Positions 25,860-48,893 of a stretch of 64,000 nt of DNA are shown one piece after another. Each line of letters begins with the position of its first letter. The first letter of the stretch is position 1. The stretch comes from a virus (lineage: Duplodnaviria; Caudoviricetes), in the IMG/VR virus record IMGVR_UViG_3300030376_006242; one strand, written 5' to 3'. The notes under the pieces are model-generated. The model did not search any database. It was not told the DNA's origin and saw nothing but the letters and a program-made list of their open reading frames with translations. The position numbers and the translations under genes were made by a program.

Positions 25860-26822
25860 ATGGCTAGTTTAAAATCATTACTTGGAACAAAACAGGACTC
25901 ATTCGTCTCGGTTGAAGAAAGTAACCTAGAGAAAGGACGTATTTACGTTTACACTCAAGGTGCTAACTACTCGAGATTATGGTGCGGATTTTGTTTTCAT
26001 CCAGAAGTGGCAGGAACAGCAATAGTAGAAATTTGGGGAGCAGGTGGATCAGGCGCAGAAATGTGTTGTTGTGGTTTTGGATTACCTGGAAACTCAGGCG
26101 CTTATGTTAAAAAACAAGTTTCAATGTCTCCAGGAGATTACATCTGCGGATGTACAGGTCAAAGTTGTGGTAACTCAGACTCATTATGTTTCAGAGGTTG
26201 CTCAGAAGCAACTCTAGTAAGATTTTGTATAGCAAGTAACGAAACTTGTGCTTGTTCAGAAGGTGGAAAAGGTGGAGTAACTTATTGTTCTACTAACTCA
26301 TCATTTTATTGTTGTTACAGAGCAAACGGTTTCTGTGTAACAAGAACAAATAACGATAACTGTGGTATAATTTGTAACCAATGTGATGGTTCATGGTGTG
26401 CTAGAGGTTATGGTGGACAAGAAAATAAATGCGGTAAGATGTCATGTGTGTCAGCATTTGGCTGTTACCCATCATGTATTTGTATGTTTAATCATCATAC
26501 ACCAACTCCCCCAGGAATGGGTTCTAAAGAAGGTAGAATGATTACGTACACAAACGATGATTTCAATGGAACACAAAACTGGTCAGGTATGGGCCACTAT
26601 CATCATTTAGCAAACCTAGGTTCAGGCAGATTCCCAACAGGCGGTGTGCCGTGGGCAAGTTGTTGGGACGGTGGTGTTGCTTGTGGTTGTTATCAAAATG
26701 ACGGTTGTATTCCTCAAATGCCAATTGGTACAGGAGGAAGAGGTCCTAACCCATGTCCAGGTGTTAGAGATCACGCAATCAGAGGTGGACACGGAGGAGT
26801 GCGAATTAAATTCGTAAGTTAA
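25860..26822 (+). CDS. Cys/Gly-rich virion protein, paralogue 1 (31 Cys)
   Basis: EIWGAGGSGA-x-MCCC..PGN-x-G-x-Y start and RDH..RGG-x-G..RIKF end (Gly-rich fibre-tip-like frame). Confidence 0.75.
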   Translation: MASLKSLLGTKQDSFVSVEESNLEKGRIYVYTQGANYSRLWCGFCFHPEVAGTAIVEIWGAGGSGAEMCCCGFGLPGNSGAYVKKQVSMSPGDYICGCTGQSCGNSDSLCFRGCSEATLVRFCIASNETCACSEGGKGGVTYCSTNSSFYCCYRANGFCVTRTNNDNCGIICNQCDGSWCARGYGGQENKCGKMSCVSAFGCYPSCICMFNHHTPTPPGMGSKEGRMITYTNDDFNGTQNWSGMGHYHHLANLGSGRFPTGGVPWASCWDGGVACGCYQNDGCIPQMPIGTGGRGPNPCPGVRDHAIRGGHGGVRIKFVS

Positions 26823-26828
26823 TTTATT

Positions 26829-27845
26829 ATGGCAAGTTTAACAACATTACTTCAAACCAAATATGATTTTTCAGTAGGAAACGAAACTAACCTTGAAAAA
26901 GGTAGAATCTATCAGTATTATCCAGGTACATCAAGAGGTACAAACTTTAGATGTCACGTATGTTTTGTTGCACCATCAGATGGTACAGCAACAATTGAAG
27001 TTTGGGGTGCTGGCGGTTCAGGCGCAGAGATGTGCTGTTGTGGTGGAGGTATTCCAGGTAACCCAGGTGGTTATGCGAAGAAAACAATCACTATGGTAGA
27101 AGGTTGTTATATTTGTGCTCAAATTGGTTTATCTTGCGGTAACTCAGATGATTTATGTTTTAGAGGCTGTTCAGAGCCAACTCAAGTATGTTGGTTTGGT
27201 GACGGCGGCGGTGACGGATGTATTTGTGCCCAAGGTGGTATTGGTGGAAGAACATGGTGTTCAACTGGTTCTTCAATCTACTGCTGTGCGGTAGCGGCAA
27301 ACTTCTGTAACACACAAGGCGGTGGCACATATTGTGGTATCGTTTGTAACTTTATGGATTCAGCAAACTGTCCTCAGTTCTGTGCTTTTGCTTATGGCGG
27401 AGACGTTAACTGTTATGGCGGTTTCAGTTGTCATTATTTCAGAGGATGTCAACCAAACTGTAACTGTAGACAAGTTCCAGTTAACAAATTTCCTCCAGGA
27501 ATGATTTCAACACTAGGTGGAGAAGTACATTACACAATGGATTCAGACTCAGGAAGATCTCAATGGTCAGGAATGGGCGGATGGATGTATGCTTCACATG
27601 GTTTCAATTTAGCAACACGTAACCCTACAACAGGCGGTCCTTACACTGGTTGTTGGGAAGGTAACAGAAGTTGCGGTTGTTACAATCAACAAGGTTGTAA
27701 CACTTTCTATCCAGCAGGTATTGGCGGACAAGGTCCAACACCTTGTGATGGAGTAAGAGATCACGCACACAGAGGTGGTCATGGTTTAATGAGAATCAAG
27801 TTTGTGTCACCGACAGATGAATACGATCTGCCGTCGGCACCATAG
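26829..27845 (+). CDS. Cys/Gly-rich virion protein, paralogue 2 (31 Cys)
   Basis: Same motifs as paralogue 1. Confidence 0.75.
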   Translation: MASLTTLLQTKYDFSVGNETNLEKGRIYQYYPGTSRGTNFRCHVCFVAPSDGTATIEVWGAGGSGAEMCCCGGGIPGNPGGYAKKTITMVEGCYICAQIGLSCGNSDDLCFRGCSEPTQVCWFGDGGGDGCICAQGGIGGRTWCSTGSSIYCCAVAANFCNTQGGGTYCGIVCNFMDSANCPQFCAFAYGGDVNCYGGFSCHYFRGCQPNCNCRQVPVNKFPPGMISTLGGEVHYTMDSDSGRSQWSGMGGWMYASHGFNLATRNPTTGGPYTGCWEGNRSCGCYNQQGCNTFYPAGIGGQGPTPCDGVRDHAHRGGHGLMRIKFVSPTDEYDLPSAP

Positions 27846-27863
27846 GAAGGAATAAATATTAGT

Positions 27864-28838
27864 ATGGCAAGTTTAAAAGGATTATTAACTACTAGAAACC
27901 CAGCAGAGATGATTGAAAACAATCTCGAAACTGGATACATTTATTCATACACTTCAGGCACGAATTACTCAAAATTTTGTAATGGTATTTGTTGGACTGC
28001 TAGAGTAGACGGCACAGCAACTATTGAAGTTTGGGGTGCAGGTGGTTCAGGTGCTAGAATGTGTTGTTGTGGTGATGGATTACCAGGCAACGCAGGTGCA
28101 TACGTACAGAAAAAAATAACAGTAGAAGCAGGTGATACAATGACTGGTCAAACAGGACACAGTTGTTATGCTCACCCATTATGTCACTCAGGTTGTTCAG
28201 AGCAATCAGAAGTTTGTTGGGTAACATCAGCAAACGGTAATGGTTGTATATGTTCAAGAGGTGGTTATGGTGGTAAAACTATGTGTACTACAGGTTCTTC
28301 ATTGTTCTGTTGTTACAGAGCACAAGGTTTCTGTTACACAAAATGCAACAATGATAACTGTGGACTAGTATGTAACGTTTGTAACGGTCACTGGTGTTCA
28401 TTAGGATACGGCGGTGACGCAGGTAAAAACTGTTGCGGACAGTTTTCATGTGCTAGTTTCTTTGGTTGTTGTCCACACTGTAAGTGTAGATTCCAACAAC
28501 ACGTGGCTACACCGGCTGGTCTATTTTCAGAAGAAGGTTCTTTGATTACTTTCCAAAAAGAATCGGATGGAACTCCGATGTCACAATGGTCAGGTAACCA
28601 ATTATTTCAGTGGTATGCGGCACTTAACTTGGCAACTAAAACGCCAAGACAAGGTAGTCCAGATGCTCACTGTTGGAGATCAACAAGATCTTGCGGATGT
28701 TATGAGATGCAAGGTTGTAACAATTATCTACCTGTTGGAGCAGGCGGACTATCACCAAACCCATGTCCAGATGTAAGAGATCACGGAATTAGAGGTGGAT
28801 TTGGTGGAGTTAGAATCAAGTTTGTTCCGGCAAGTTAA
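27864..28838 (+). CDS. Cys/Gly-rich virion protein, paralogue 3 (32 Cys)
   Basis: Same motifs as paralogue 1. Confidence 0.75.
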   Translation: MASLKGLLTTRNPAEMIENNLETGYIYSYTSGTNYSKFCNGICWTARVDGTATIEVWGAGGSGARMCCCGDGLPGNAGAYVQKKITVEAGDTMTGQTGHSCYAHPLCHSGCSEQSEVCWVTSANGNGCICSRGGYGGKTMCTTGSSLFCCYRAQGFCYTKCNNDNCGLVCNVCNGHWCSLGYGGDAGKNCCGQFSCASFFGCCPHCKCRFQQHVATPAGLFSEEGSLITFQKESDGTPMSQWSGNQLFQWYAALNLATKTPRQGSPDAHCWRSTRSCGCYEMQGCNNYLPVGAGGLSPNPCPDVRDHGIRGGFGGVRIKFVPAS

Positions 28839-30708: not shown

Positions 30709-31662
30709 ATGAGCACAGAACAAAAAAGACCTAAAGCATTCTTACTTAATGGCGGCATGGGAAGAATTATATCTGCTATTCCAGCCTTAGAAAAATATCA
30801 AGAAGAAGGAAATGATCCAAATTTTATCGTAGTAATAGAAGGAGTGTGTGACATAATGAAAGGTCATCCAACACTGGATTCTAAAACTTACGATATGTAT
30901 CATAAAAATTTATTTCACACAAAATTAGTCAACATGGACATTGTAAGTCCAGAGCCTTATAGAGTACATGAATATTTTAATCAAAAATGTAACATTGCTC
31001 AAGCATTTGATTTATTAATAAACAACAAAGGCTTAAGAGACTTACCTAAGTCAACACTTGTTTTAAGCAAAGAAGAATTAATAGCAGGAAGACAAGCAGT
31101 TGATCAAGTAAAAGAAAAACTTAAAAAAGAAAAAGTTGTTGTGATACAACCTTTTGGCAGAGCAATAGAACAAATTGATGGTTCTTTTGTAGATAAAACA
31201 AACAGAAGTATAGAGTTTTTCAATTTAAAAAGATTAATTAAAAAATTACAGGAAAAAGATTTTGCTGTTATGTTAATGTCAGAGTTTGGAATTGATTTTA
31301 AAGATGCTGGATTTCCAGATGAAGTTGCTATGCCTGAAAAAGTTGAATTAAGACAATGGGCATCAATTATAAAACACGCAGACCATTTTTTAGGATGTGA
31401 TTCATTGGGACAACACCTTGCTTACAGTTTAGATACGCCAGCAAGTGTAGTGTTTGGTGCTACATATCCAGAAAACACATCATATGCAAAATCAGATAAG
31501 TTTAACATCATAGATTTAGGACAAATGGTACGTGAATATGATCCAATTAGAATAACAATGGATGAAAGAATTAGTAGAAAACAAGAACAAATAATGACAA
31601 TGACTCCTGAAATAGAAGATTATGTAGTATCAGCAGTAAACGGTGACCCAATAGAGGATTAA
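30709..31662 (+). CDS. GT9 (ADP-heptose heptosyltransferase)-like glycosyltransferase 1
   Basis: GGMGRIISAIPAL and ADHFLGCDSLGQHLAYSLDTPASVVFGAT match the GT9 G-D-x3-P and D-S-G-x-x-H-L-A motifs. Confidence 0.75.
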   Translation: MSTEQKRPKAFLLNGGMGRIISAIPALEKYQEEGNDPNFIVVIEGVCDIMKGHPTLDSKTYDMYHKNLFHTKLVNMDIVSPEPYRVHEYFNQKCNIAQAFDLLINNKGLRDLPKSTLVLSKEELIAGRQAVDQVKEKLKKEKVVVIQPFGRAIEQIDGSFVDKTNRSIEFFNLKRLIKKLQEKDFAVMLMSEFGIDFKDAGFPDEVAMPEKVELRQWASIIKHADHFLGCDSLGQHLAYSLDTPASVVFGATYPENTSYAKSDKFNIIDLGQMVREYDPIRITMDERISRKQEQIMTMTPEIEDYVVSAVNGDPIED

Positions 31663-31664
31663 TT

Positions 31665-33494
31665 ATGGATGACATAGAAAAATATAACAAAACAGGTTAC
31701 ATTGCCGCAATAGCCAGAGGACACAATGCAGGTGTTTGTCTATTAAAAGACGGTGAAGTAGTATTTTCAATTGAAGAAGAAAGATTATCAAGAAGAAAAT
31801 ATGACGGTGGACCATATGCTTCAATGGTAGAAATTTTAAAATACACAGACAAGATTGATTATCTTGTTGTTGCTCACACACAAAGTTTAGAAGACAGATC
31901 AACTGGTAGAGTAGACTATTCAGGAGATGATGTTTACACAGGAATAGCAAGAAAATTAGGATTAATTGATAGACACGTATTTGACACAAAACATCCTCAA
32001 GTAATTGACTTGTCACACATTCATCACAAACTTCATGCCGCGTGTGCTTTTTATAGATCAGGATTTGATAAAGCAGTAGCAGTAATAGTAGACGGAGCAG
32101 GAACTTTTATTCCAATTAATAACAGTGTGTCAGGACAAACAACTGTGTTTGAAGTAGAAAGTATTTTTAGTTGTGATTATCCAAATGATATCTACGCACT
32201 GTACAAACATTATGGAACAGGTGAAGCAAGTCCAGGAGCATTTTATCCAGACTTTGCTTCTGATTCAATAGGTGAGCCAGGCAAAACACACCAAGCATTA
32301 TTCACAGACAGAGCAGGAATTGTAAAAGTTTATGAAGCAGTAACACAGTATTGTGGATTCAGTGCCATTGAAGCAGGAAAGACAATGGGATTATTTCCTT
32401 ATGGAAAAGAAAATGATATTATTCCACCATTGTTTAAGAAAGAAGGACACTATTCTTTATCTAATAGAAACTTAATTGTGCCAACATATCCTAATGCATC
32501 GTTAGTAAACAGTGGATTATATCCATTTATAGATCAAAATCCTGAATCAGAAGACAAAGACGATTGGACAAAAATGCAAAATAGAAGAGATTTGGCATAT
32601 GCTGTACAAAAAGAATCACAAAAAGAATGTTTAGACTTAATTTACAAAGCAGTACAGATGAGTGGATGTAAAAATGTTGTGTTTTCAGGAGGATATGGAT
32701 TAAATTGTGTAGCAAATTATTATTATTTAGATAGTTTAAAGAAAGATGGCATAAAATTTTACGCAGAACCAGTTTCAAATGATGCGGGAACGGCTATGGG
32801 TGCCGCAATGTTGTTCTATTACAGTCTAACACAAACAAAAGAAAAGAAAGTTGATGAACCTACACTATACTTAGGTCCAAAAAGAACATACACAGATGAA
32901 CAAATACAAAATGTTTGTGCTCAAGATGGTGTAGAATTAACAGAAGCAACCAACGAAGAAGTTGTAAAAATTATTGCTGAAAGAAATATTGTTTCAATAT
33001 TCCAAGGAGCAAGTGAAAACGGTCCAAGAGCATTGGGTAACAGATCAATATTGTATGATCCAAGAGACCCTAATGGTAAAGACCACGTAAACAAAGTTAA
33101 ACATAGAGAATATTTCAGACCATTTGCCGGAACTATACTACATGAATTTGTACATGAATGGTTTGACTTGCGTGGTATGGAAGAAACACCACATATGATG
33201 TATGCTGTAAACTGTCAACCAGGCATAGAAGAAAAAATTCCAAGTATTATTCACGTTGATGGAACTTGTAGAATACAATCAGTTAAGAGAGAACAAAATC
33301 CTTTGTACTATGACTTAATCAAAGAGTTTCATAAACAAACAGATTGTCCTATTATATTCAATACTTCATTTAATTTAGGTGGTGAACCGTTAGTTGAAAC
33401 TTTAGAAGATGCTGTACGCACATTGATACACAGTGAAATTGAGTATTTGTACTTGCCTGAATATAACAAATTAATAAAGGTAGCAAATAAATGA
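31665..33494 (+). CDS. O-carbamoyltransferase, NodU/CmcH/TobZ family
   Basis: EEERLSRRK, HHKLHA, DGAG, GKTMGL, GG-x-GLNCVAN, DAG-x-A-x-GAA, GPRALGNRS, KHRE-x-FRPFA, HVDGT, NTSFN..GEP. Confidence 0.93.
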   Translation: MDDIEKYNKTGYIAAIARGHNAGVCLLKDGEVVFSIEEERLSRRKYDGGPYASMVEILKYTDKIDYLVVAHTQSLEDRSTGRVDYSGDDVYTGIARKLGLIDRHVFDTKHPQVIDLSHIHHKLHAACAFYRSGFDKAVAVIVDGAGTFIPINNSVSGQTTVFEVESIFSCDYPNDIYALYKHYGTGEASPGAFYPDFASDSIGEPGKTHQALFTDRAGIVKVYEAVTQYCGFSAIEAGKTMGLFPYGKENDIIPPLFKKEGHYSLSNRNLIVPTYPNASLVNSGLYPFIDQNPESEDKDDWTKMQNRRDLAYAVQKESQKECLDLIYKAVQMSGCKNVVFSGGYGLNCVANYYYLDSLKKDGIKFYAEPVSNDAGTAMGAAMLFYYSLTQTKEKKVDEPTLYLGPKRTYTDEQIQNVCAQDGVELTEATNEEVVKIIAERNIVSIFQGASENGPRALGNRSILYDPRDPNGKDHVNKVKHREYFRPFAGTILHEFVHEWFDLRGMEETPHMMYAVNCQPGIEEKIPSIIHVDGTCRIQSVKREQNPLYYDLIKEFHKQTDCPIIFNTSFNLGGEPLVETLEDAVRTLIHSEIEYLYLPEYNKLIKVANK

Positions 33495-34468
33495 AAAAGA
33501 CAGCAATATTTTTAAATGGCGGAGCAGGTAGAATGATCAGTTCTATTCCAGCAGTAGAAAAATACCTAGAAGAAAACCCAGATAAAGATCCAATTTTAGT
33601 TTGTGAAGGTGGTACAGATGTATTCAAAGGTCATCCTAAATTTCATTTTAGAGCATATGACAGTTGGCACAAAAATTTGTTCCAAGAAATGCTTAAAGAT
33701 AGAGAATTAATTAGTCCAGAGCCTTATAGAATATGGGAATATTACAATCAAAAGTGTAGTCTTGCTCAAGCATATGATATTGCTATTAATAATAAAGGAA
33801 TAAGAGACCTACCTAAACCTACAATAAGATTAAGCAAAGAAGAATTACTGATGGCAAGACAAATGATTACTGAAGTAAAAGAAAAAACAGGCAAAGATAA
33901 AATTATAGTAGTTCAACCTTTTGGAAGAGGTGCTCAACCTGAGAAAATTACTGAAAAACAAATGGAAAAAGGTAAACAACCTGATATTTCAGATGTTACA
34001 GGTAGAAGTATTGAACTGAAAAACCTCTGGAGCATTGTAAGAAAATTATCTAAAAAGTATGGCGTTATGATGATGAGTGAATTTCCACTAGAATTTAAAA
34101 ATCATATGTCGGCACCAGTGGCTACACCTATGAATGTTCACATTAGAATATGGATGGCATTAATTAAACAGACCAATCATTTTGTTGGCTGTGATTCTGT
34201 AGGGCAACACCTTGCTTATGCATTTGATAAAACAGCCACAGTAATAATAGGTTCAACGTATCCTATAAACACATCATTTCCTGATGCTGAAAATATAGAT
34301 ATTATTGACCTTGGATCGGAAGATAGAGTATATTCACCAATTAGAATCACATCAGATGAGTTTAGCGATAGGCTGAATGAGGGAATAATGGCTATGGAAG
34401 ACCAAACTGAAGACAAGGTAGTGAAGTCAGTTGAAAAGATGCTTAAACAGAGCAAAAACAAGCAGTAA
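33491..34468 (+). CDS. GT9-like glycosyltransferase 2 (paralogue of 30709..31662)
   Basis: GGAGRMISSIPAV, SPEPYR, QPFGR, HFVGCDSVGQHLAY; ATGA-type overlap region with the carbamoyltransferase end. Confidence 0.75.
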   Translation: MKKTAIFLNGGAGRMISSIPAVEKYLEENPDKDPILVCEGGTDVFKGHPKFHFRAYDSWHKNLFQEMLKDRELISPEPYRIWEYYNQKCSLAQAYDIAINNKGIRDLPKPTIRLSKEELLMARQMITEVKEKTGKDKIIVVQPFGRGAQPEKITEKQMEKGKQPDISDVTGRSIELKNLWSIVRKLSKKYGVMMMSEFPLEFKNHMSAPVATPMNVHIRIWMALIKQTNHFVGCDSVGQHLAYAFDKTATVIIGSTYPINTSFPDAENIDIIDLGSEDRVYSPIRITSDEFSDRLNEGIMAMEDQTEDKVVKSVEKMLKQSKNKQ

Positions 34469-34991: not shown

Positions 34992-36854
34992 ATGGCAGTT
35001 GTTTTTAAACCTTTTGAAACGGATTACGGGTATAAGTCACCAGGATTTAGTGTTGACACAAATGGTAATGTTACTGTCCGTACCGTTACAACCACATACA
35101 TACCACCAGTAATTCCACCAGCACCTGATTTTAACGTAAATGAAACAGCAGGTGCATTTACTTTCTTAAACAAAGGTACTGCTGTGGCAGGAAATAATCC
35201 TCAAATCACAGTTGAAAGAGGAACAACTTATACGTTTGTTTTGAATACAAGCAGTTTGGCTTTCAATGTTTATAAACCAGATGTAGGAAATACAAGTGTT
35301 CCTGGTTTATTATACAGTGAAGGATTATCTCACGCAAATACAGTATCAGGTGAAAATTTAGCAACAGGTACAATAAGTTTTACACAAACGTGGCAACAAC
35401 AATCGTCAGGATTTAGTAGAACTGCTCAAGTGGTAGTGCCAGACACAACAGGCACAGCATTAGAAGGCAAAAAAATTCCTGTGGTTATTTCATTACATGA
35501 CGATGGATTTACTCAAGCAAACGGTATAACCAATGTTAATTTTATCACAGACAAAATTTTAATAGCACCTCAAGGTTACAACAATCAATGGAACATTGGT
35601 TATCAAACATCTAAAGCAGACGATATTGCTTTACTTGATTCAATTATTTCAAGTTTAAGTGACTATGACAATGTTGACACAAGAGAAATCACAATAATTG
35701 GTTACGGTAACGGTGGGCAATTAGCATTACAATATTCAAATTATTCTCAAAATGCTTCAGTAAAAAATATTATCGCATTTAATGGACTTTTAAATGTTGA
35801 TCAATATCAAACAGTAGATCACAGTTTTTACACATATGATTTAGATGATCAAGTACAAGACCAATCAACTATTATTAATTGGACAAGTGTTACTCCACTG
35901 GGTAGTAAAAATGTTTTAATGTTCAATGGTAAAGATGATTTAAATTTCCTTTACAATGGTGGCACAGTTGGTGCTCAAGAATTATACAGTGCTGAAAATT
36001 CTATATATGGAATGGCTAGAGCAGATGGCTCAACTGAAGATAAAATTACAACAGCAACATCTGAATCAGACGGCAGTGAAAGTTTCACATACGACAACGG
36101 CGCTATAAGATTATATGCCTTTCCAGGTGTAGCAAATAATTTTACAACGTATCAAAACGTTATTAGAACAAGAATAAACTCTACAATAGCAACAAGCACA
36201 TACTTAGATATTCCAGTTGCTACTACATTGACTGATGCAGAAGCACAAGGTAAACAATCAGGAACTTTAACATATGCTGTTCCTGTTGATGCTCCAGATA
36301 CACTTTACTACGGAGATACAGACGGTGTTCCTTATGGACAATTAACTGTTGCTCAACCAAGTATAATTGGTGCTGGTGTATTCAGTTCAATTTTAGATAC
36401 AGGCGATTTATTAGCAGAAGGACAAGATGCACAAATTAGGTTAAGTCCTTCAGGAACAGGTACAGTCACAATTAATCCTGCAACAACAGGTACTGTGAAC
36501 AACGTAAATGTAAACGCACAAAATTTATCAACAAGTGGAAATGTAAGTTTAACACCAAATGCTGATGTAACAATCAGTCCACAAGCGGGAGGCACACTTA
36601 CTATGAGACCTACTGACACTGGTCTTGTAGATAATGTATCAATAGGGTCTGTAATACCAAGAAATGGAACCTTTTCAACATTGAATTCTTCCCAAGGAAC
36701 GTTAAATAACACTACATTAGGATTAACAACGGCGGCACAGGCGGCTTTTACATCGGCTACTGTTTCAAGTAACCCAAGTAATGCTAATGATGTTACAAAG
36801 AAGCAATATGTTGATAACACAGCCACAGTGTTATCGATAGCATTAGGAGTATAG
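34992..36854 (+). CDS. Virion fibre protein carrying an inactive alpha/beta-hydrolase (PHB-depolymerase/LpqC-like) domain
   Basis: PVVISLH, APQG...W, DDIA.L..II, GYGNGG (Ser replaced by Gly), NG-x-DD; C-terminal KQYVD..SIALG. Confidence 0.7.
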   Translation: MAVVFKPFETDYGYKSPGFSVDTNGNVTVRTVTTTYIPPVIPPAPDFNVNETAGAFTFLNKGTAVAGNNPQITVERGTTYTFVLNTSSLAFNVYKPDVGNTSVPGLLYSEGLSHANTVSGENLATGTISFTQTWQQQSSGFSRTAQVVVPDTTGTALEGKKIPVVISLHDDGFTQANGITNVNFITDKILIAPQGYNNQWNIGYQTSKADDIALLDSIISSLSDYDNVDTREITIIGYGNGGQLALQYSNYSQNASVKNIIAFNGLLNVDQYQTVDHSFYTYDLDDQVQDQSTIINWTSVTPLGSKNVLMFNGKDDLNFLYNGGTVGAQELYSAENSIYGMARADGSTEDKITTATSESDGSESFTYDNGAIRLYAFPGVANNFTTYQNVIRTRINSTIATSTYLDIPVATTLTDAEAQGKQSGTLTYAVPVDAPDTLYYGDTDGVPYGQLTVAQPSIIGAGVFSSILDTGDLLAEGQDAQIRLSPSGTGTVTINPATTGTVNNVNVNAQNLSTSGNVSLTPNADVTISPQAGGTLTMRPTDTGLVDNVSIGSVIPRNGTFSTLNSSQGTLNNTTLGLTTAAQAAFTSATVSSNPSNANDVTKKQYVDNTATVLSIALGV

Positions 36855-44023: not shown

Positions 44024-44392
44024 TTATTTTTTTTGAGAATCTCCAGGAATGACTCTGTAATTGTCTTCTGGATCGTCAGCGGTGCTTACTTCTGTGATAC
44101 TTCCTCTATCAGTTAAACATTGTACTTGATGAGGCATTAAAGGTAAATTTCTCCAAGTTTCACCTTCTTTTATTTCTTTTGTTAAAAGTGTTGCTGTTTT
44201 AGTATCTATCCAACTTAAAAGGAATCTGCCTTCATTTACAAACCATGATTCATCTTTTGTTTTATGAAAGTGCATTGAAAATTTTGCACCTTTGCGTTCA
44301 AATACCATTATTTTTCCACAGTACTTGTCGTTGGAGGCCCATATTAATTCATAACCCCAACCTTTATCTACTTTTCCTTCTTTATTGATCAT
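44024..44392 (-). CDS. Cupin, sugar isomerase-like
   Basis: KGWGYE, SMHFH..K-x-E, P...HQ, EVST. Confidence 0.8.
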   Translation of the reverse strand: MINKEGKVDKGWGYELIWASNDKYCGKIMVFERKGAKFSMHFHKTKDESWFVNEGRFLLSWIDTKTATLLTKEIKEGETWRNLPLMPHQVQCLTDRGSITEVSTADDPEDNYRVIPGDSQKK

Positions 44393-45200
44393 TTAAATAT
44401 TGCTCAACTGTTTTATAATTTATTGTAACATTTTTATTTAATTCTGTCAAATCTGCACAGGTGTAAGACTGGTATTGTCCTTTCAATGCTTGTGGCATTG
44501 GAATAGTTTCTATTTTGGCATTGTATTTTTTGGCTACAGACTCTGCTACTGATTGAAATGATGTTGCTTTGCCTGTTCCTATGTTAAAAATACCGCTTGT
44601 ATCTTTTCCAAGCATTTGACAATGTACGTTACAAATATCATCTACACATACAAAATCTCTTAAAAACTTGTCACTGTTTTCAAATACTTTAATTACTCCT
44701 GTATCTTTTGCTTGTTTAGAAAACTTTGTTACTGGAGATGCTTGGTCTCCTTTATGTTCTTCATTATTGCCATAAACATTAAAATATCTAAAACCTTGTA
44801 CTAAAATTTTAAATTCTCCCATTGCTTGTTGAACAAATCTGTCAAACAGATACTTGCTCCAAGCATATGGTGATTGTGGATACACTGGACCACTTTCAAC
44901 AAAACTGTTTGTGTTTCCATACACACTAGCAGAACTAGAATATTGAAAATTTACACCCATTGTATCACACATTTGTAATAATTTTAAACTGTATTCGTAA
45001 TTTTGATTCATTATTAATTCTACATTTCTTTCTGTTGTAGAACTAATAGCACCTAGATGTATAACCCAATCATACAAACTAGGATCAGGAAAACTATTTT
45101 CAGTATATTCAAATTCAGTTACATCATGGTTTTGATCTCTTAAATGTTTAATTAAATTTTTTCCTATAAAACCAGCAGATCCTGTTACAACAATTCTCAT
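44382..45200 (-). CDS. hldD: ADP-L-glycero-D-manno-heptose 6-epimerase
   Basis: TGSAGFIG, HLGAISSTTE, SSASVYG, YAWSK, GFRYFNVYG..E-x-HKG-x-QAS; start adjusted to MRIVV. Confidence 0.88.
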   Translation of the reverse strand: MRIVVTGSAGFIGKNLIKHLRDQNHDVTEFEYTENSFPDPSLYDWVIHLGAISSTTERNVELIMNQNYEYSLKLLQMCDTMGVNFQYSSSASVYGNTNSFVESGPVYPQSPYAWSKYLFDRFVQQAMGEFKILVQGFRYFNVYGNNEEHKGDQASPVTKFSKQAKDTGVIKVFENSDKFLRDFVCVDDICNVHCQMLGKDTSGIFNIGTGKATSFQSVAESVAKKYNAKIETIPMPQALKGQYQSYTCADLTELNKNVTINYKTVEQYLNDQ

Positions 45201-45799
45201 ACATGACTCCATAGTTTTACAATTTCTTCTGAATTTTTTGGAGCAATATCTTTTACAAGTTGGTCAGAATGATGTGTAACATAATTGATGTTTATATTCA
45301 CTCTAGACCTTGCGTTACTACAAGTACTTCCAGTATGTTCCATATAACTTGGAAATATAACCATTGAGTTTGCTTCGCTTACAATTTTATCTCCATCTTT
45401 AAATTCTGTATAGCCATTATTTGTATTACAATAAAAAATTGCTGTATAACTTAATGGCACACTTACATCACAATGCATACCGTGAGTAATAATTTTATCT
45501 TGTCCAGGAATATTGTTTGCTTTTACACGTAAAAAAGTATGAGGCTGTAACACAGCAAATATAGGTATTAACATATTCCATAGTTCTGGTCCTGTCACAA
45601 TATTACTAACTTCATGAAATTTGTGTACAAATTGAATTTGATATTTTTCTTCTGTGCTAGATTGTTCCGGATTAACCACATGGTCTTGATAAAACCAAGG
45701 AAATTTATCACTCAAAATAATATCTGTTAGTTGTTTAAAATGTTCATCAGATAAAACATTCTTTATAATAATTTTATTATTTTTTATTTCTTTGTTCAT
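45197..45799 (-). CDS. 2OG-Fe(II) oxygenase
   Basis: H-x-D (HCD), NGYT-x-F, distal H (EHTG) and R-x-N-x-N. Confidence 0.75.
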   Translation of the reverse strand: MNKEIKNNKIIIKNVLSDEHFKQLTDIILSDKFPWFYQDHVVNPEQSSTEEKYQIQFVHKFHEVSNIVTGPELWNMLIPIFAVLQPHTFLRVKANNIPGQDKIITHGMHCDVSVPLSYTAIFYCNTNNGYTEFKDGDKIVSEANSMVIFPSYMEHTGSTCSNARSRVNININYVTHHSDQLVKDIAPKNSEEIVKLWSHV

Positions 45800-47036
45800 T
45801 TACTTTGTCCACTATATTAGATGTTGAAAAACCTTTCACTGTTGGAAATATTCTTACATCTGCTAATTCATTGCCTACTGTTGTTTCAACAGTATAATCT
45901 CCACCTTTTACTATTACGTTTGGTTGGTGTTCTTTAATTGCTTCAATAGGCGTGTCTTCTTCAAACACAACAACTTCATCTACCCATGGAAGTTCTAATA
46001 GTTGTTGCTTTCTTAAAATAGTATTATTCAATGGACGACCTTCTCCTTTTAATCTTTTGACACTTTCGTCTGAATTAATGCCAACAATTAATTTATCGCC
46101 CTGACTTTTTGAAAATTTTAATAATTCTAAATGTCCTTGATGTAATATATCAAAAACACCATTGGTCCAAACCACTGTATCTTCTATATCTGATAATTGT
46201 ACAACAGTTACTCCTCTGTGTTGAACAACAGCACTAGCACCTTTTAATGCTAATGTACAAGCATCAATCATATTTGTTCCCTGCTCAACATACTTTACAA
46301 TTATTGCTAGAACAGTGTCACCTGCACCACTGACATCTGCTAATTCAACAGCATCACCCGTGATGTGTTTATAAGTATTTTCACCAACAACATGAATACC
46401 ATTACCACCGTCAGTTATTACAAGCCACTCCCAAGCAAATTCTTTTCTAAATTGATCCGCATTTTCTTTTGTGAATTCACCAAACCATTGTTCATACTCT
46501 TTCATATTAGGTTTCACAAGATATGCACCTTTATAATTTGTAGGTTGTTGTTTCGGGTCAACATAAACTCTTTTTACAGAAGACACAATATCTTTGACTA
46601 AAGAATTATTAACAACTCCTTTATCGTAATCACTTATCAATACAATATCGTCTTTTTGTAAATTTTTAATTAAATTTTTGGTAGGTTCAGCATCAGTATA
46701 TTTGTCTTCCTTATCAAGTCTTAATAGGTGTTGACCATCACTACCAATCATTCTAGTCTTCACTGTGCTTGTTTTGGCATCGCTACTGATGAATGTTTTA
46801 ATGTTATTTTTCAACAATATTTCCTGTATTTTATGCCCTGGGGCATCGTTGCCCACCGAACTATAAAGATGCGTGTCTACGCCCAAGTTTGACAGGTTTA
46901 AAGCGAGATTTCCTGCCCCTCCTACGTTGTAATTACGTTTGCTTTCCTTAAGAACAAGTGCTGATGCTTCTGGAGATACTTTGGTACAATTCCCTTGTAC
47001 CCAGACATCCAACATAACATCGCCGATTATTTTCAT
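45777..47036 (-). CDS. hldE: Bifunctional heptose-7-P kinase / heptose-1-P adenylyltransferase
   Basis: GDVMLD, SPEA, GGAGN, SDYDKG, VDPK and DVSGAGDT (PfkB), then TNGVFDILH-x-GH, NSD-x-SV..LKG..RP and KGGDY. Confidence 0.92.
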   Translation of the reverse strand: MKIIGDVMLDVWVQGNCTKVSPEASALVLKESKRNYNVGGAGNLALNLSNLGVDTHLYSSVGNDAPGHKIQEILLKNNIKTFISSDAKTSTVKTRMIGSDGQHLLRLDKEDKYTDAEPTKNLIKNLQKDDIVLISDYDKGVVNNSLVKDIVSSVKRVYVDPKQQPTNYKGAYLVKPNMKEYEQWFGEFTKENADQFRKEFAWEWLVITDGGNGIHVVGENTYKHITGDAVELADVSGAGDTVLAIIVKYVEQGTNMIDACTLALKGASAVVQHRGVTVVQLSDIEDTVVWTNGVFDILHQGHLELLKFSKSQGDKLIVGINSDESVKRLKGEGRPLNNTILRKQQLLELPWVDEVVVFEEDTPIEAIKEHQPNVIVKGGDYTVETTVGNELADVRIFPTVKGFSTSNIVDKVNEQRNKK

Positions 47037-47483: not shown

Positions 47484-48893
47484 CTACTGGATCTTCCAAG
47501 TGCCTTTTCGATATTCACCTTCGAAAGACAATAACCATTCACTACCATTCCATTTGTATTGTACGCCTGTGTTTAAATTGGTAACGTGAGTGGTATTCGT
47601 TGTTGTGCTGGCATCAAAAATAACTTCCCAATTGGTACCGTTCCATTCTATGATGTCATTAGCACCAGCAACTAAATCTATATTGCTGTCACCTTTCCAA
47701 GCATCAGCACCATCTTCATTATCTGTTGAGCCAATACCTTTTAACAACAATAATCTTTTTCCATTCTGTTTAACTGTTGTTGGATCAAATTTTGTAGGGT
47801 CTACAATAAAATCAACTGAACCACTTGTAGTGATTGGTCCAACAATTACAGTGTCAGTTGGAATTGTGTCTTCATCCCAATCAATTAATAATTGATATGG
47901 GTTTGCTTCGTTTACTGCTACTGTACCAACTACTTGAGCATCAATGCCTTCTCTATTCAAATAAATTTTGCTCAATCCATTTTTAAAATTAGGTATTGTT
48001 AATACATTGCCTGTCCATACTTCGCCACCTATTACACCTTTAACAATAATTTGAGCAACACTATTCAATACATAGATGTCTACATTAATGCCTGTTGTTC
48101 CTTGTACTGAGTCTGTATCTTTTCTTATTGCTCTTCCTTTGTCATCTAATTTGATACTGTTTTCATATCCATCTTGGTATGCTTTTAGTTCAGGCATAGT
48201 TTGGCTTAAATCTATATTTCCAGTTTGTTCATTGAATATACTTGTTATAATGTGTGTGATTACTCCTAATTTTTTTACTTTTGTTGGCGGAGAAATGTAT
48301 ATAGGTGTTGTAAAACCTAAAGTCGCAACATCGACTTCTGTTTCCGTTCCTAATGGAATCGTTCTAGACGAAAAATTAATATTAGATAATTCTACTACAC
48401 TTAAACTTGTCCAGTCAACGTAGTTGTCTGTGGTTTGTATTTCTAGAGATGGATTAAACAACATCATTATTTGTTCCATTACTTGTAATTTTTGTTCTGT
48501 GTTTGATGTCCAAATATCAGCATTCAATGTTAATGTGTATGGTGTTGGCATTAATCTTTCAACTGTAACATTTTTACCTTGTGTATTCAAATATTCATTA
48601 TTGTTGGCATCATATGCTCTTTCTCTAACATGGACTTTACTAATGAAACTAGAATCTGCTAAACGAGTTCTGTCCATTTCTAAACCGGTAACATACACAC
48701 CCATTCTAGGCACAGACGGTAATTTATTTTCTGAATTATCTCTTATAATGTGTGATACTTGTCTTGTAATATCTCCATACATTACCGGAATAGTTCTTAA
48801 AGAACCATCTCCATCTTTGTATGAAAAATTACTCATCAGTCTAATTATTTGAGTAATATATCTTCTAATCTGTCCGTCGTAAAAAAATTGCAT
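47484..48893 (-). CDS. gp15: Tail completion / sheath stabiliser, gp15-like, with C-terminal extension
   Basis: FFYD-x-QIRRY, IPVMYG, P-x-PY-x-L, Q-x-MEQI...F-x-P; next to neck genes. Confidence 0.7.
   Translation of the reverse strand: MQFFYDGQIRRYITQIIRLMSNFSYKDGDGSLRTIPVMYGDITRQVSHIIRDNSENKLPSVPRMGVYVTGLEMDRTRLADSSFISKVHVRERAYDANNNEYLNTQGKNVTVERLMPTPYTLTLNADIWTSNTEQKLQVMEQIMMLFNPSLEIQTTDNYVDWTSLSVVELSNINFSSRTIPLGTETEVDVATLGFTTPIYISPPTKVKKLGVITHIITSIFNEQTGNIDLSQTMPELKAYQDGYENSIKLDDKGRAIRKDTDSVQGTTGINVDIYVLNSVAQIIVKGVIGGEVWTGNVLTIPNFKNGLSKIYLNREGIDAQVVGTVAVNEANPYQLLIDWDEDTIPTDTVIVGPITTSGSVDFIVDPTKFDPTTVKQNGKRLLLLKGIGSTDNEDGADAWKGDSNIDLVAGANDIIEWNGTNWEVIFDASTTTNTTHVTNLNTGVQYKWNGSEWLLSFEGEYRKGTWKIQ

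Follow-up and report, generated by a model that had tools for sequence, protein, structure and literature searches.

The window considered here is a 64,000-nucleotide stretch of viral DNA (Caudoviricetes; IMG/VR record IMGVR_UViG_3300030376_006242). The subject of this report is a cassette of three closely packed genes, all on its plus strand, in which a carbamoyltransferase gene lies between two genes for proteins resembling the glycosyltransferases (GTs) of family GT9. We call these two GT1 and GT2 (gene names here, not the CAZy families of the same numbers). GT1 (30709-31662; 317 residues) and GT2 (33491-34468; 325 residues) are 50-52% identical to each other and belong to phrog_8954 (E = 2e-125 and 1e-132, respectively), a family labelled 'unknown function'; the GT gene is annotated as 'hypothetical protein' in all records seen. 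The middle gene (31665-33494; 609 residues) encodes a predicted O-carbamoyltransferase of the NodU/CmcH/TobZ type. Like those enzymes, it carries both Pfam domains, each above its cut-off (Carbam_trans_N, E = 7e-22, 78.7 bits against 24; Carbam_trans_C, E = 7e-59, 198.7 bits against 27), and the solved O-carbamoyltransferases 7xb6, GdmN, NovN and TobZ are related to it over its full length (E = 1e-50 to 1e-43). Its score against the NodU equivalog model is 126.6, under the cut-off of 1000, and what sets its gene apart is a fixed place beside a GT9-like gene, within a virion module.

The catalytic base of the GT9 heptosyltransferase WaaC is Asp13, a residue said to be strictly conserved among homologous heptosyltransferases (bioRxiv 10.1101/2021.06.16.448588). 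An earlier note on this DNA claimed that both window proteins have Arg at this place while keeping the donor motif DS-x-GQHLA, and the translations agree exactly. GT1 has G15-G16-M-G18-R19 (residues 15-19; 30751-30765), with R19 aligned to Asp13 by hhalign, and GT2 has GGAGR (residues 10-14; 33518-33532). The donor motifs are GCDSLGQHLA (residues 229-238; 31393-31422) and GCDSVGQHLA (residues 233-242; 34187-34216). Two further motifs stand out in GT1: P81-E82-P83-Y84 (30949-30960; PEPY of GT2 at 33716-33727), which is invariant in the family, and D162-x3-R166-S167 (31192-31209). The Arg codon is AGA in both genes and differs at all three positions from the Asp codons GAT and GAC, so a single-base sequencing error does not explain it.

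Fold and donor site

An AlphaFold (AF2) model of GT1, built from a 78-sequence alignment (predicted local distance difference test, pLDDT, 96), is a two-domain GT-B protein and its strong matches are all GT-B. In the VIA ranking it is closest to a Veillonella GT9 protein (PDB code 3tov; Z = 23.9), WaaF (1psw; 21.4), TibC (20.1) and WaaC (19.4), and the next fold after GT9 follows at Z = 11.4. PnsB1, a non-catalytic GT9-like subunit of chloroplast NDH, also matches at Z of about 19. The best 30 Foldseek matches are all GT9 chains (E = 2e-10 to 1e-8).

Pfam PF01075, the GT9 family model, recognizes the donor region alone: it scores 29.1 bits for GT1 (cut-off 22) and 14.8 bits, under the cut-off, for GT2, and the match is restricted to the C-terminal 55 residues. 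Searches of family profiles against PDB sequences gave weak C-terminal GT9 matches, with no solved GT9 structure detectable over the N-terminal half; the residue mapping in that half therefore rests on hhalign together with the fold match. Alignment of the family profile with Escherichia coli WaaC, WaaF, WaaQ and WaaU by hhalign (probability 97.5%, E = 5e-12, 260 columns) places R19 on D13, R166 on K192, D231 on D261 and H236 on H266. The four E. coli enzymes, 1psw and 3tov all have G-D at the Asp13 place.

On the donor side the phage proteins resemble WaaC and WaaF, the lipopolysaccharide (LPS) heptosyltransferases of CAZy family GT9, in the GT-B fold (Z = 19-21), the D-[ST]-G-x-x-H motif and, probably, the use of ADP-heptose. 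Lys192, Asp261, His266 and the G-P-T of WaaC are matched by R166, D231, H236 and G250-x-T252; Lys192 binds phosphate (bioRxiv 10.1101/2021.06.16.448588). Conservation was counted over 84 full-length representatives clustered at 50% identity. Each of R166, D231, S232, H236, G250 and T252 occurs in 75 or more of them, near-invariance that spans proteins of 22-50% identity to GT1. GT1 and GT2 are thus GT9 proteins by fold and donor site that lack the defining catalytic residue of the family. The retained set of donor-side residues argues for a working enzyme, and by sequence the two are almost certainly active nucleotide-sugar transferases. One metagenomic member, P0264 (558 residues), fuses a GT8 domain (E = 3e-12) to a GT9-like domain of the GGIGR type, which also counts for a real transferase and suggests that some members assemble glycans containing several sugars.

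The Arg and the acceptor side

A HMMER scan of 1.84 billion representatives gave 574 clusters (50% identity) at E ≤ 0.001. The conservation of the Arg, on which the earlier note had staked its proposal, holds throughout: position 19 is Arg in 78 of the 84 representatives, Lys in three and another residue in three, within a (D/N)GGxGR motif, and GGxGR is found in 103/103 copies from 89 loci of viruses and metagenome-assembled genomes (MAGs), a regularity that chance would not produce. The four cultured-phage loci examined (S-CAM1, P-SSM2, Vibrio D505 and Aeromonas HJ05) have it too, the Vibrio and Aeromonas homologues at only 25-28% identity. Among 185,579 species genomes a narrow search pattern matched only nine contigs, all of them MAG contigs with titles in seven unrelated phyla, and the subfamily also occurs in thousands of marine metagenome sequences; judged from these occurrences, the GGxGR family looks phage-restricted.

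A maximum-likelihood tree groups the downstream, GT2-type copies in one clade (support 100/99) and the upstream, GT1-type copies in another (100/99), the latter nested among single-copy genes within a larger 100/100 clade. Both paralogue clades lie within the Arg-bearing family, so the Arg was inherited from the family ancestor in one old event, not two. For GT1, GT2 and the carbamoyltransferase alike, the ratio of nonsynonymous to synonymous substitution rates (dN/dS) is close to 0.05; together with retention of the Arg, this indicates purifying selection on the Arg-bearing copies. The earlier note had taken the same Asp-to-Arg change in two paralogues as a sign of selection; selection is borne out, and family-wide, but the two changes were not independent.

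Away from the donor site the phage proteins depart from WaaC and WaaF in several respects besides the Arg. They have a shorter N-terminal acceptor domain, a YxPIR motif and PEPY as a new invariant loop, and their family, which appears to be confined to phages, sits in fibre modules. In the GT1 model the N-terminal domain holds four strands (9-13, 40-43, 60-62 and 77-79) within about 120 residues and is smaller than that of WaaC. When the profiles are aligned, nothing in the phage family corresponds to the WaaC segment containing Arg120, an invariant residue that binds the acceptor. The invariant or near-invariant residues of the family are G15, G16, G18, R19, E82, P83, Y84, E123, Q147, P148, G150, D162, R166, S167, R215, D231, S232, H236, G250, T252, N256, Y259, R281 and N292.

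Of these elements PEPY is the novelty on the acceptor side (E82 in 80, P83 and Y84 in all 84 representatives). It follows directly on strand 4 of the N-terminal Rossmann domain, which in that topology lies beside strand 1, the strand leading into the GGxGR loop. The four sequences without E82 (two Asn, one Lys and one Asp) are all among the six without R19, a joint loss with a hypergeometric probability of about 8e-6, and one of the double variants, Lys/Asp, is a conservative swap. A scan by mutual information with average product correction couples R19 best with Arg281 and Glu82, and the loops after strands 1, 2 and 4 co-vary (14-44 and 85-44). Glu82 is thus a possible, and serious, candidate for a relocated base or for a partner of Arg19. 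Arg19 itself could pair with Glu82, the latter acting as base, steady the leaving diphosphate or hold an anionic nucleophile.

The fibre module and the ADP-heptose genes

Its genes mark the window as part of a marine T4-like myovirus, namely its fibre and virion module; the giant proteins encoded there match tail-fibre and virion PHROGs. Upstream of GT1 lie three tandem Cys/Gly-rich genes (25860-28838, plus strand; phrog_4205) that are co-inherited with the GT and whose products are candidate acceptors. They contain 31, 31 and 32 Cys in 320-338 residues (9-10%) around a conserved WGAGGSG...CCCG core, so the proportion of about 10% given in the earlier note is real. A model of the first member (pLDDT 79) matches the fiber of cyanophage Pam3 (Z = 15.2), the Bxb1 tail tip (11.9) and the glycine-rich domain of ALK (8-10), and the triplet is predicted to fold like fibre proteins.

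The link of the GT to these proteins proved stronger than had been claimed. Open reading frames (ORFs) of 200-450 residues with at least 7% Cys and at least 12% Gly occur in 77 of the 89 GT loci, exactly three of them in 62; each of the 12 loci that lack such ORFs is truncated. In four loci (L053, L067, L071 and L077; locus numbers are our own) the triplet has been relocated downstream on the opposite strand and is still within a few kilobases of the GT. A tblastn search of 50,697 cultured-phage records with the P-SSM2 homologue hit 11, all GT carriers; the same search with a window protein (P0124) gave no match, probably owing to the low-complexity filter. The GT-linked proteins have 8-11% Cys across loci. 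Within the closer subfamily about 15 of 31 Cys columns are at least 90% conserved, and six columns are at least 80% conserved across distant relatives.

In Aeromonas phage HJ05, gp49 (L005, 7303-8982), directly upstream of the GT homologue, has 22 Cys in its last ~290 residues, a domain with LVGGGAS and GIVEITW motifs resembling those of the triplet; its hhalign match to the Cys-rich family profile is not significant and the likeness is at the motif level only. A tail protein of Vibrio phage D505 beside the GT homologue (L004, 9744-15014) has 23 Cys in residues 101-400 and looks unrelated to the triplet in sequence. The Cys-dense stretches next to these two homologues contain about 7-8% Cys, against 0-3% in other structural genes.

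Synteny was compared in 80 IMG/VR loci (52-92% identity). The carbamoyltransferase follows the GT directly in almost all of them, and GT2 is present only in the nearest relatives among the loci compared. Cultured carriers of the cassette include S-CAM1, S-CAM3, S-SSM7 and P-SSM2. The Vibrio and Aeromonas phage homologues are placed between large tail genes, and in every lineage examined the GT genes lie within the late fibre module. From this setting we conclude that the GT-carbamoyltransferase module probably decorates the virus particle.

The donor would be supplied by the phage itself. About 10 kb downstream of the cassette, on the minus strand, are an HldE-like heptose-7-phosphate kinase/heptose-1-phosphate adenylyltransferase gene (45777-47036; PRK11316, E = 2e-92; Pfam PfkB and CTP_transf_like) and an HldD-like ADP-glyceromanno-heptose 6-epimerase gene (44382-45212; TIGR02197, E = 9e-74). 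HldE-type genes and HldD directly follow the carbamoyltransferase in S-CAM1, P-SSM2, L023 and L069-72. In view of this gene context ADP-heptose is the likely donor of GT1 and GT2. GmhA was not seen among the window ORFs scanned. A small cupin encoded in the ADP-heptose operon (44024-44392, minus strand) could be a stand-in sugar-phosphate isomerase; it is a homologue of PSSM2_312 (33% identity, E = 3e-18), whose record is labelled 'cysteine dioxygenase', and its Pfam matches are weak (D-lyxose-isomerase-like, cupin). Its equation with the 'phosphoheptose isomerase' of P-SSM2 was wrong, the actual match being PSSM2_312.

The cassette varies among relatives. In some, one or two ORFs of about 300 residues intervene between the GT and the carbamoyltransferase (L071, 10998-12799; L077, 11002-12825; L050, 11009-11929; L084, 10927-11775); these have no Pfam match and no GT9-like similarity. 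One lineage has two tandem carbamoyltransferase genes after the GT (L068, 11169-14566; L069), and S-SSM7 shows four tblastn match places for the carbamoyltransferase. The cassette in the window is followed by a gene for a 620-residue protein (34992-36854; phrog_2576) with a dienelactone-hydrolase/esterase match below cut-off (E = 3e-4); of the 21 loci nearest to the window, 15 have a homologue (46-79% identity) after the cassette, among them L021 and L006-L016 without the truncated L009 and L012.

The gp15-like tail-sheath stabiliser of the window (47484-48893, minus strand) has as its nearest cultured relatives not cyanomyoviruses but jumbo phages (Sinorhizobium Phosso, Agrobacterium Atu_ph07 and Pseudomonas PA5oct; 30-33% identity), and the length of related IMG/VR contigs goes up to 350-364 kb. 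The phage of the window seems to be one of an uncultured group of large T4-like phages, which has the cassette in common with some cyanophages.

Proposed function and alternatives

We propose, with a probability of about 0.55, that GT1 and GT2 are active ADP-heptose transferases which place heptose, or carbamoylheptose, on virion fibre proteins by way of a rewired acceptor site. ADP-heptose would be made by HldE and HldD of the phage, and GT1 and GT2, acting as inverting enzymes, would transfer the heptose to a fibre protein, most probably one of the upstream Cys/Gly-rich proteins, which are the best candidates on the strength of their co-inheritance. The TobZ/NodU-type enzyme would then O-carbamoylate the transferred sugar, this order of reactions being our suggestion. 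The acceptor site would have been rebuilt by replacement of the G-D base with GGxGR, adjoining the invariant PEPY loop. An oxygen atom (Ser, Thr or Tyr) is somewhat more likely than sulphur as the acceptor.

TibC offers a precedent for the target. It heptosylates a protein with ADP-heptose, is inactive as D110A and forms an iron-containing dodecamer (PMC4358343). The autotransporter heptosyltransferases TibC and AAH (BAHT family) share with the phage proteins a GT9-type catalytic domain (Z = 20) and act on protein rather than LPS, as proposed here. In contrast to the phage proteins, TibC retains its base, Asp110, targets Ser in β-helix repeats and has an N-terminal extension of about 90 residues; residue 1 of the GT1 model aligns with TibC residue 88.

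Protein O-fucosyltransferase 1 (POFUT1; GT65) offers one for the chemistry. According to PMC8631701 and PMC6096484, it has no basic active-site residue and O-fucosylates Ser/Thr in Cys-rich EGF domains; as there described, it is an inverting enzyme with the GT-B fold that does without a classical Asp, Glu or His as base, as the phage proteins may, and neither a missing Asp nor Cys-rich partners then require a sulphur acceptor. It is a mechanistic precedent and not a relative: it belongs to another family, uses GDP-fucose, has its key Arg and Asn at other positions and is not among the top fold matches of the GT1 model. Searches of the available literature for cyanophage heptosyltransferases or virion heptosylation gave nothing relevant, no study of the GT gene and no account of such fibre glycosylation in cyanophages or marine T4-like phages.

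Several points weigh against this proposal. The partnership is not universal, since members from Vibrio and Aeromonas phages have no carbamoyltransferase, and synteny inside a T4-like structural module may be kept for many reasons. The proximity of Arg19 and Glu82 is inferred from Rossmann topology and co-variation, and the co-variation comes from four sequences, two of which seem generally degenerate. Some other ADP- or NDP-sugar might serve as donor. A comparative paper of 2010, which also lists the carbamoyltransferase, treated the neighbouring heptose genes as 'LPS genes' of unknown role (PMC3037559).

An unlikely alternative, which develops the thiol chemistry of the earlier note, is that the enzymes are protein S-heptosyltransferases in which Arg19, perhaps with Tyr84, stabilizes a Cys thiolate of the fibre proteins for base-free attack, giving S-linked heptose. 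Arg and Tyr are the usual thiolate-stabilizing residues in peroxiredoxins, tyrosine phosphatases and glutathione transferases, and here an Arg stands exactly at the base position throughout the family, in strict co-inheritance with proteins of 8-11% Cys; the GT neighbours in HJ05 and D505 have their Cys-dense stretches as well. However, the invariant Glu82, co-varying with Arg19, is available as a base, and conservation of about half the Cys columns in the closer subfamily has the pattern of disulphides or metal sites rather than of modification sites. The Vibrio Cys-dense region, moreover, seems to have no sequence relationship to the triplet, and POFUT1, on the account cited above, manages O-glycosylation of Cys-rich modules as a base-less inverting GT-B enzyme. 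To our knowledge none of the characterized S-glycosyltransferases (SunS, ThuS, GccA and UGT74B1) belongs to GT9; SunS and ThuS are members of CAZy family GT2 with the GT-A fold, in contrast to the GT-B fold of the phage proteins.

A non-protein anionic acceptor appears distinctly unlikely. In this case Arg19 would bind the charge of a phosphate- or carboxylate-bearing glycan or lipid-linked intermediate, of the host envelope or phage-made, and the cassette would remodel the surface of the infected cell. A Gly-rich loop with a basic residue resembles phosphate-binding loops, and the GGxGxH loop of MurG is thought to bind such charge. 7-O-Carbamoyl-heptose is known from the LPS core of Pseudomonas aeruginosa, and transferases of the LPS core are typical of GT8, the family fused to one member. 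The sugars on which canonical GT9 enzymes act, via basic loops, are 3-deoxy-D-manno-oct-2-ulosonic acid (Kdo) or heptose of LPS (bioRxiv 10.1101/2021.06.16.448588), and the neighbouring genes have been named LPS genes (PMC3037559). Against this stand the late fibre module that houses the genes in every lineage examined, their co-inheritance with fibre proteins and not with other envelope genes, and the small N-terminal domain in which the Arg120 segment of WaaC has no counterpart.

Very improbable is a non-catalytic role, the fallback of the earlier note, be it as a scaffold of GT9 shape or as a chaperone of fibre assembly, with the base lost as in PnsB1: the missing Asp, the close structural match of PnsB1 and the position of the HJ05 homologue after a fibre gene, the usual place of a fibre chaperone, would suit it, but the near-invariance of R166, D231, S232, H236, G250 and T252, a matching donor pathway encoded by the phage, the tight pairing with a sugar-modifying carbamoyltransferase and the GT8 fusion speak for catalysis. 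DNA as the target was dropped, the genes lying in a fibre module with no hydroxymethyl-pyrimidine pathway seen nearby.

The phage proteins represent a whole branch of GT9, the 574 clusters described above, without the accepted base and with a donor site under strong selection. Whether the chemistry relies on a relocated base, on none at all or on sulphur as nucleophile, it would broaden the known GT-B repertoire; were the nucleophile sulphur, these would be the first GT9-fold protein S-glycosyltransferases, producing S-linked carbamoylated heptose on the receptor-binding fibres of marine T4-like phages. A glycan coat on receptor-binding proteins might alter host recognition, stability or resistance to grazing in abundant ocean viruses.

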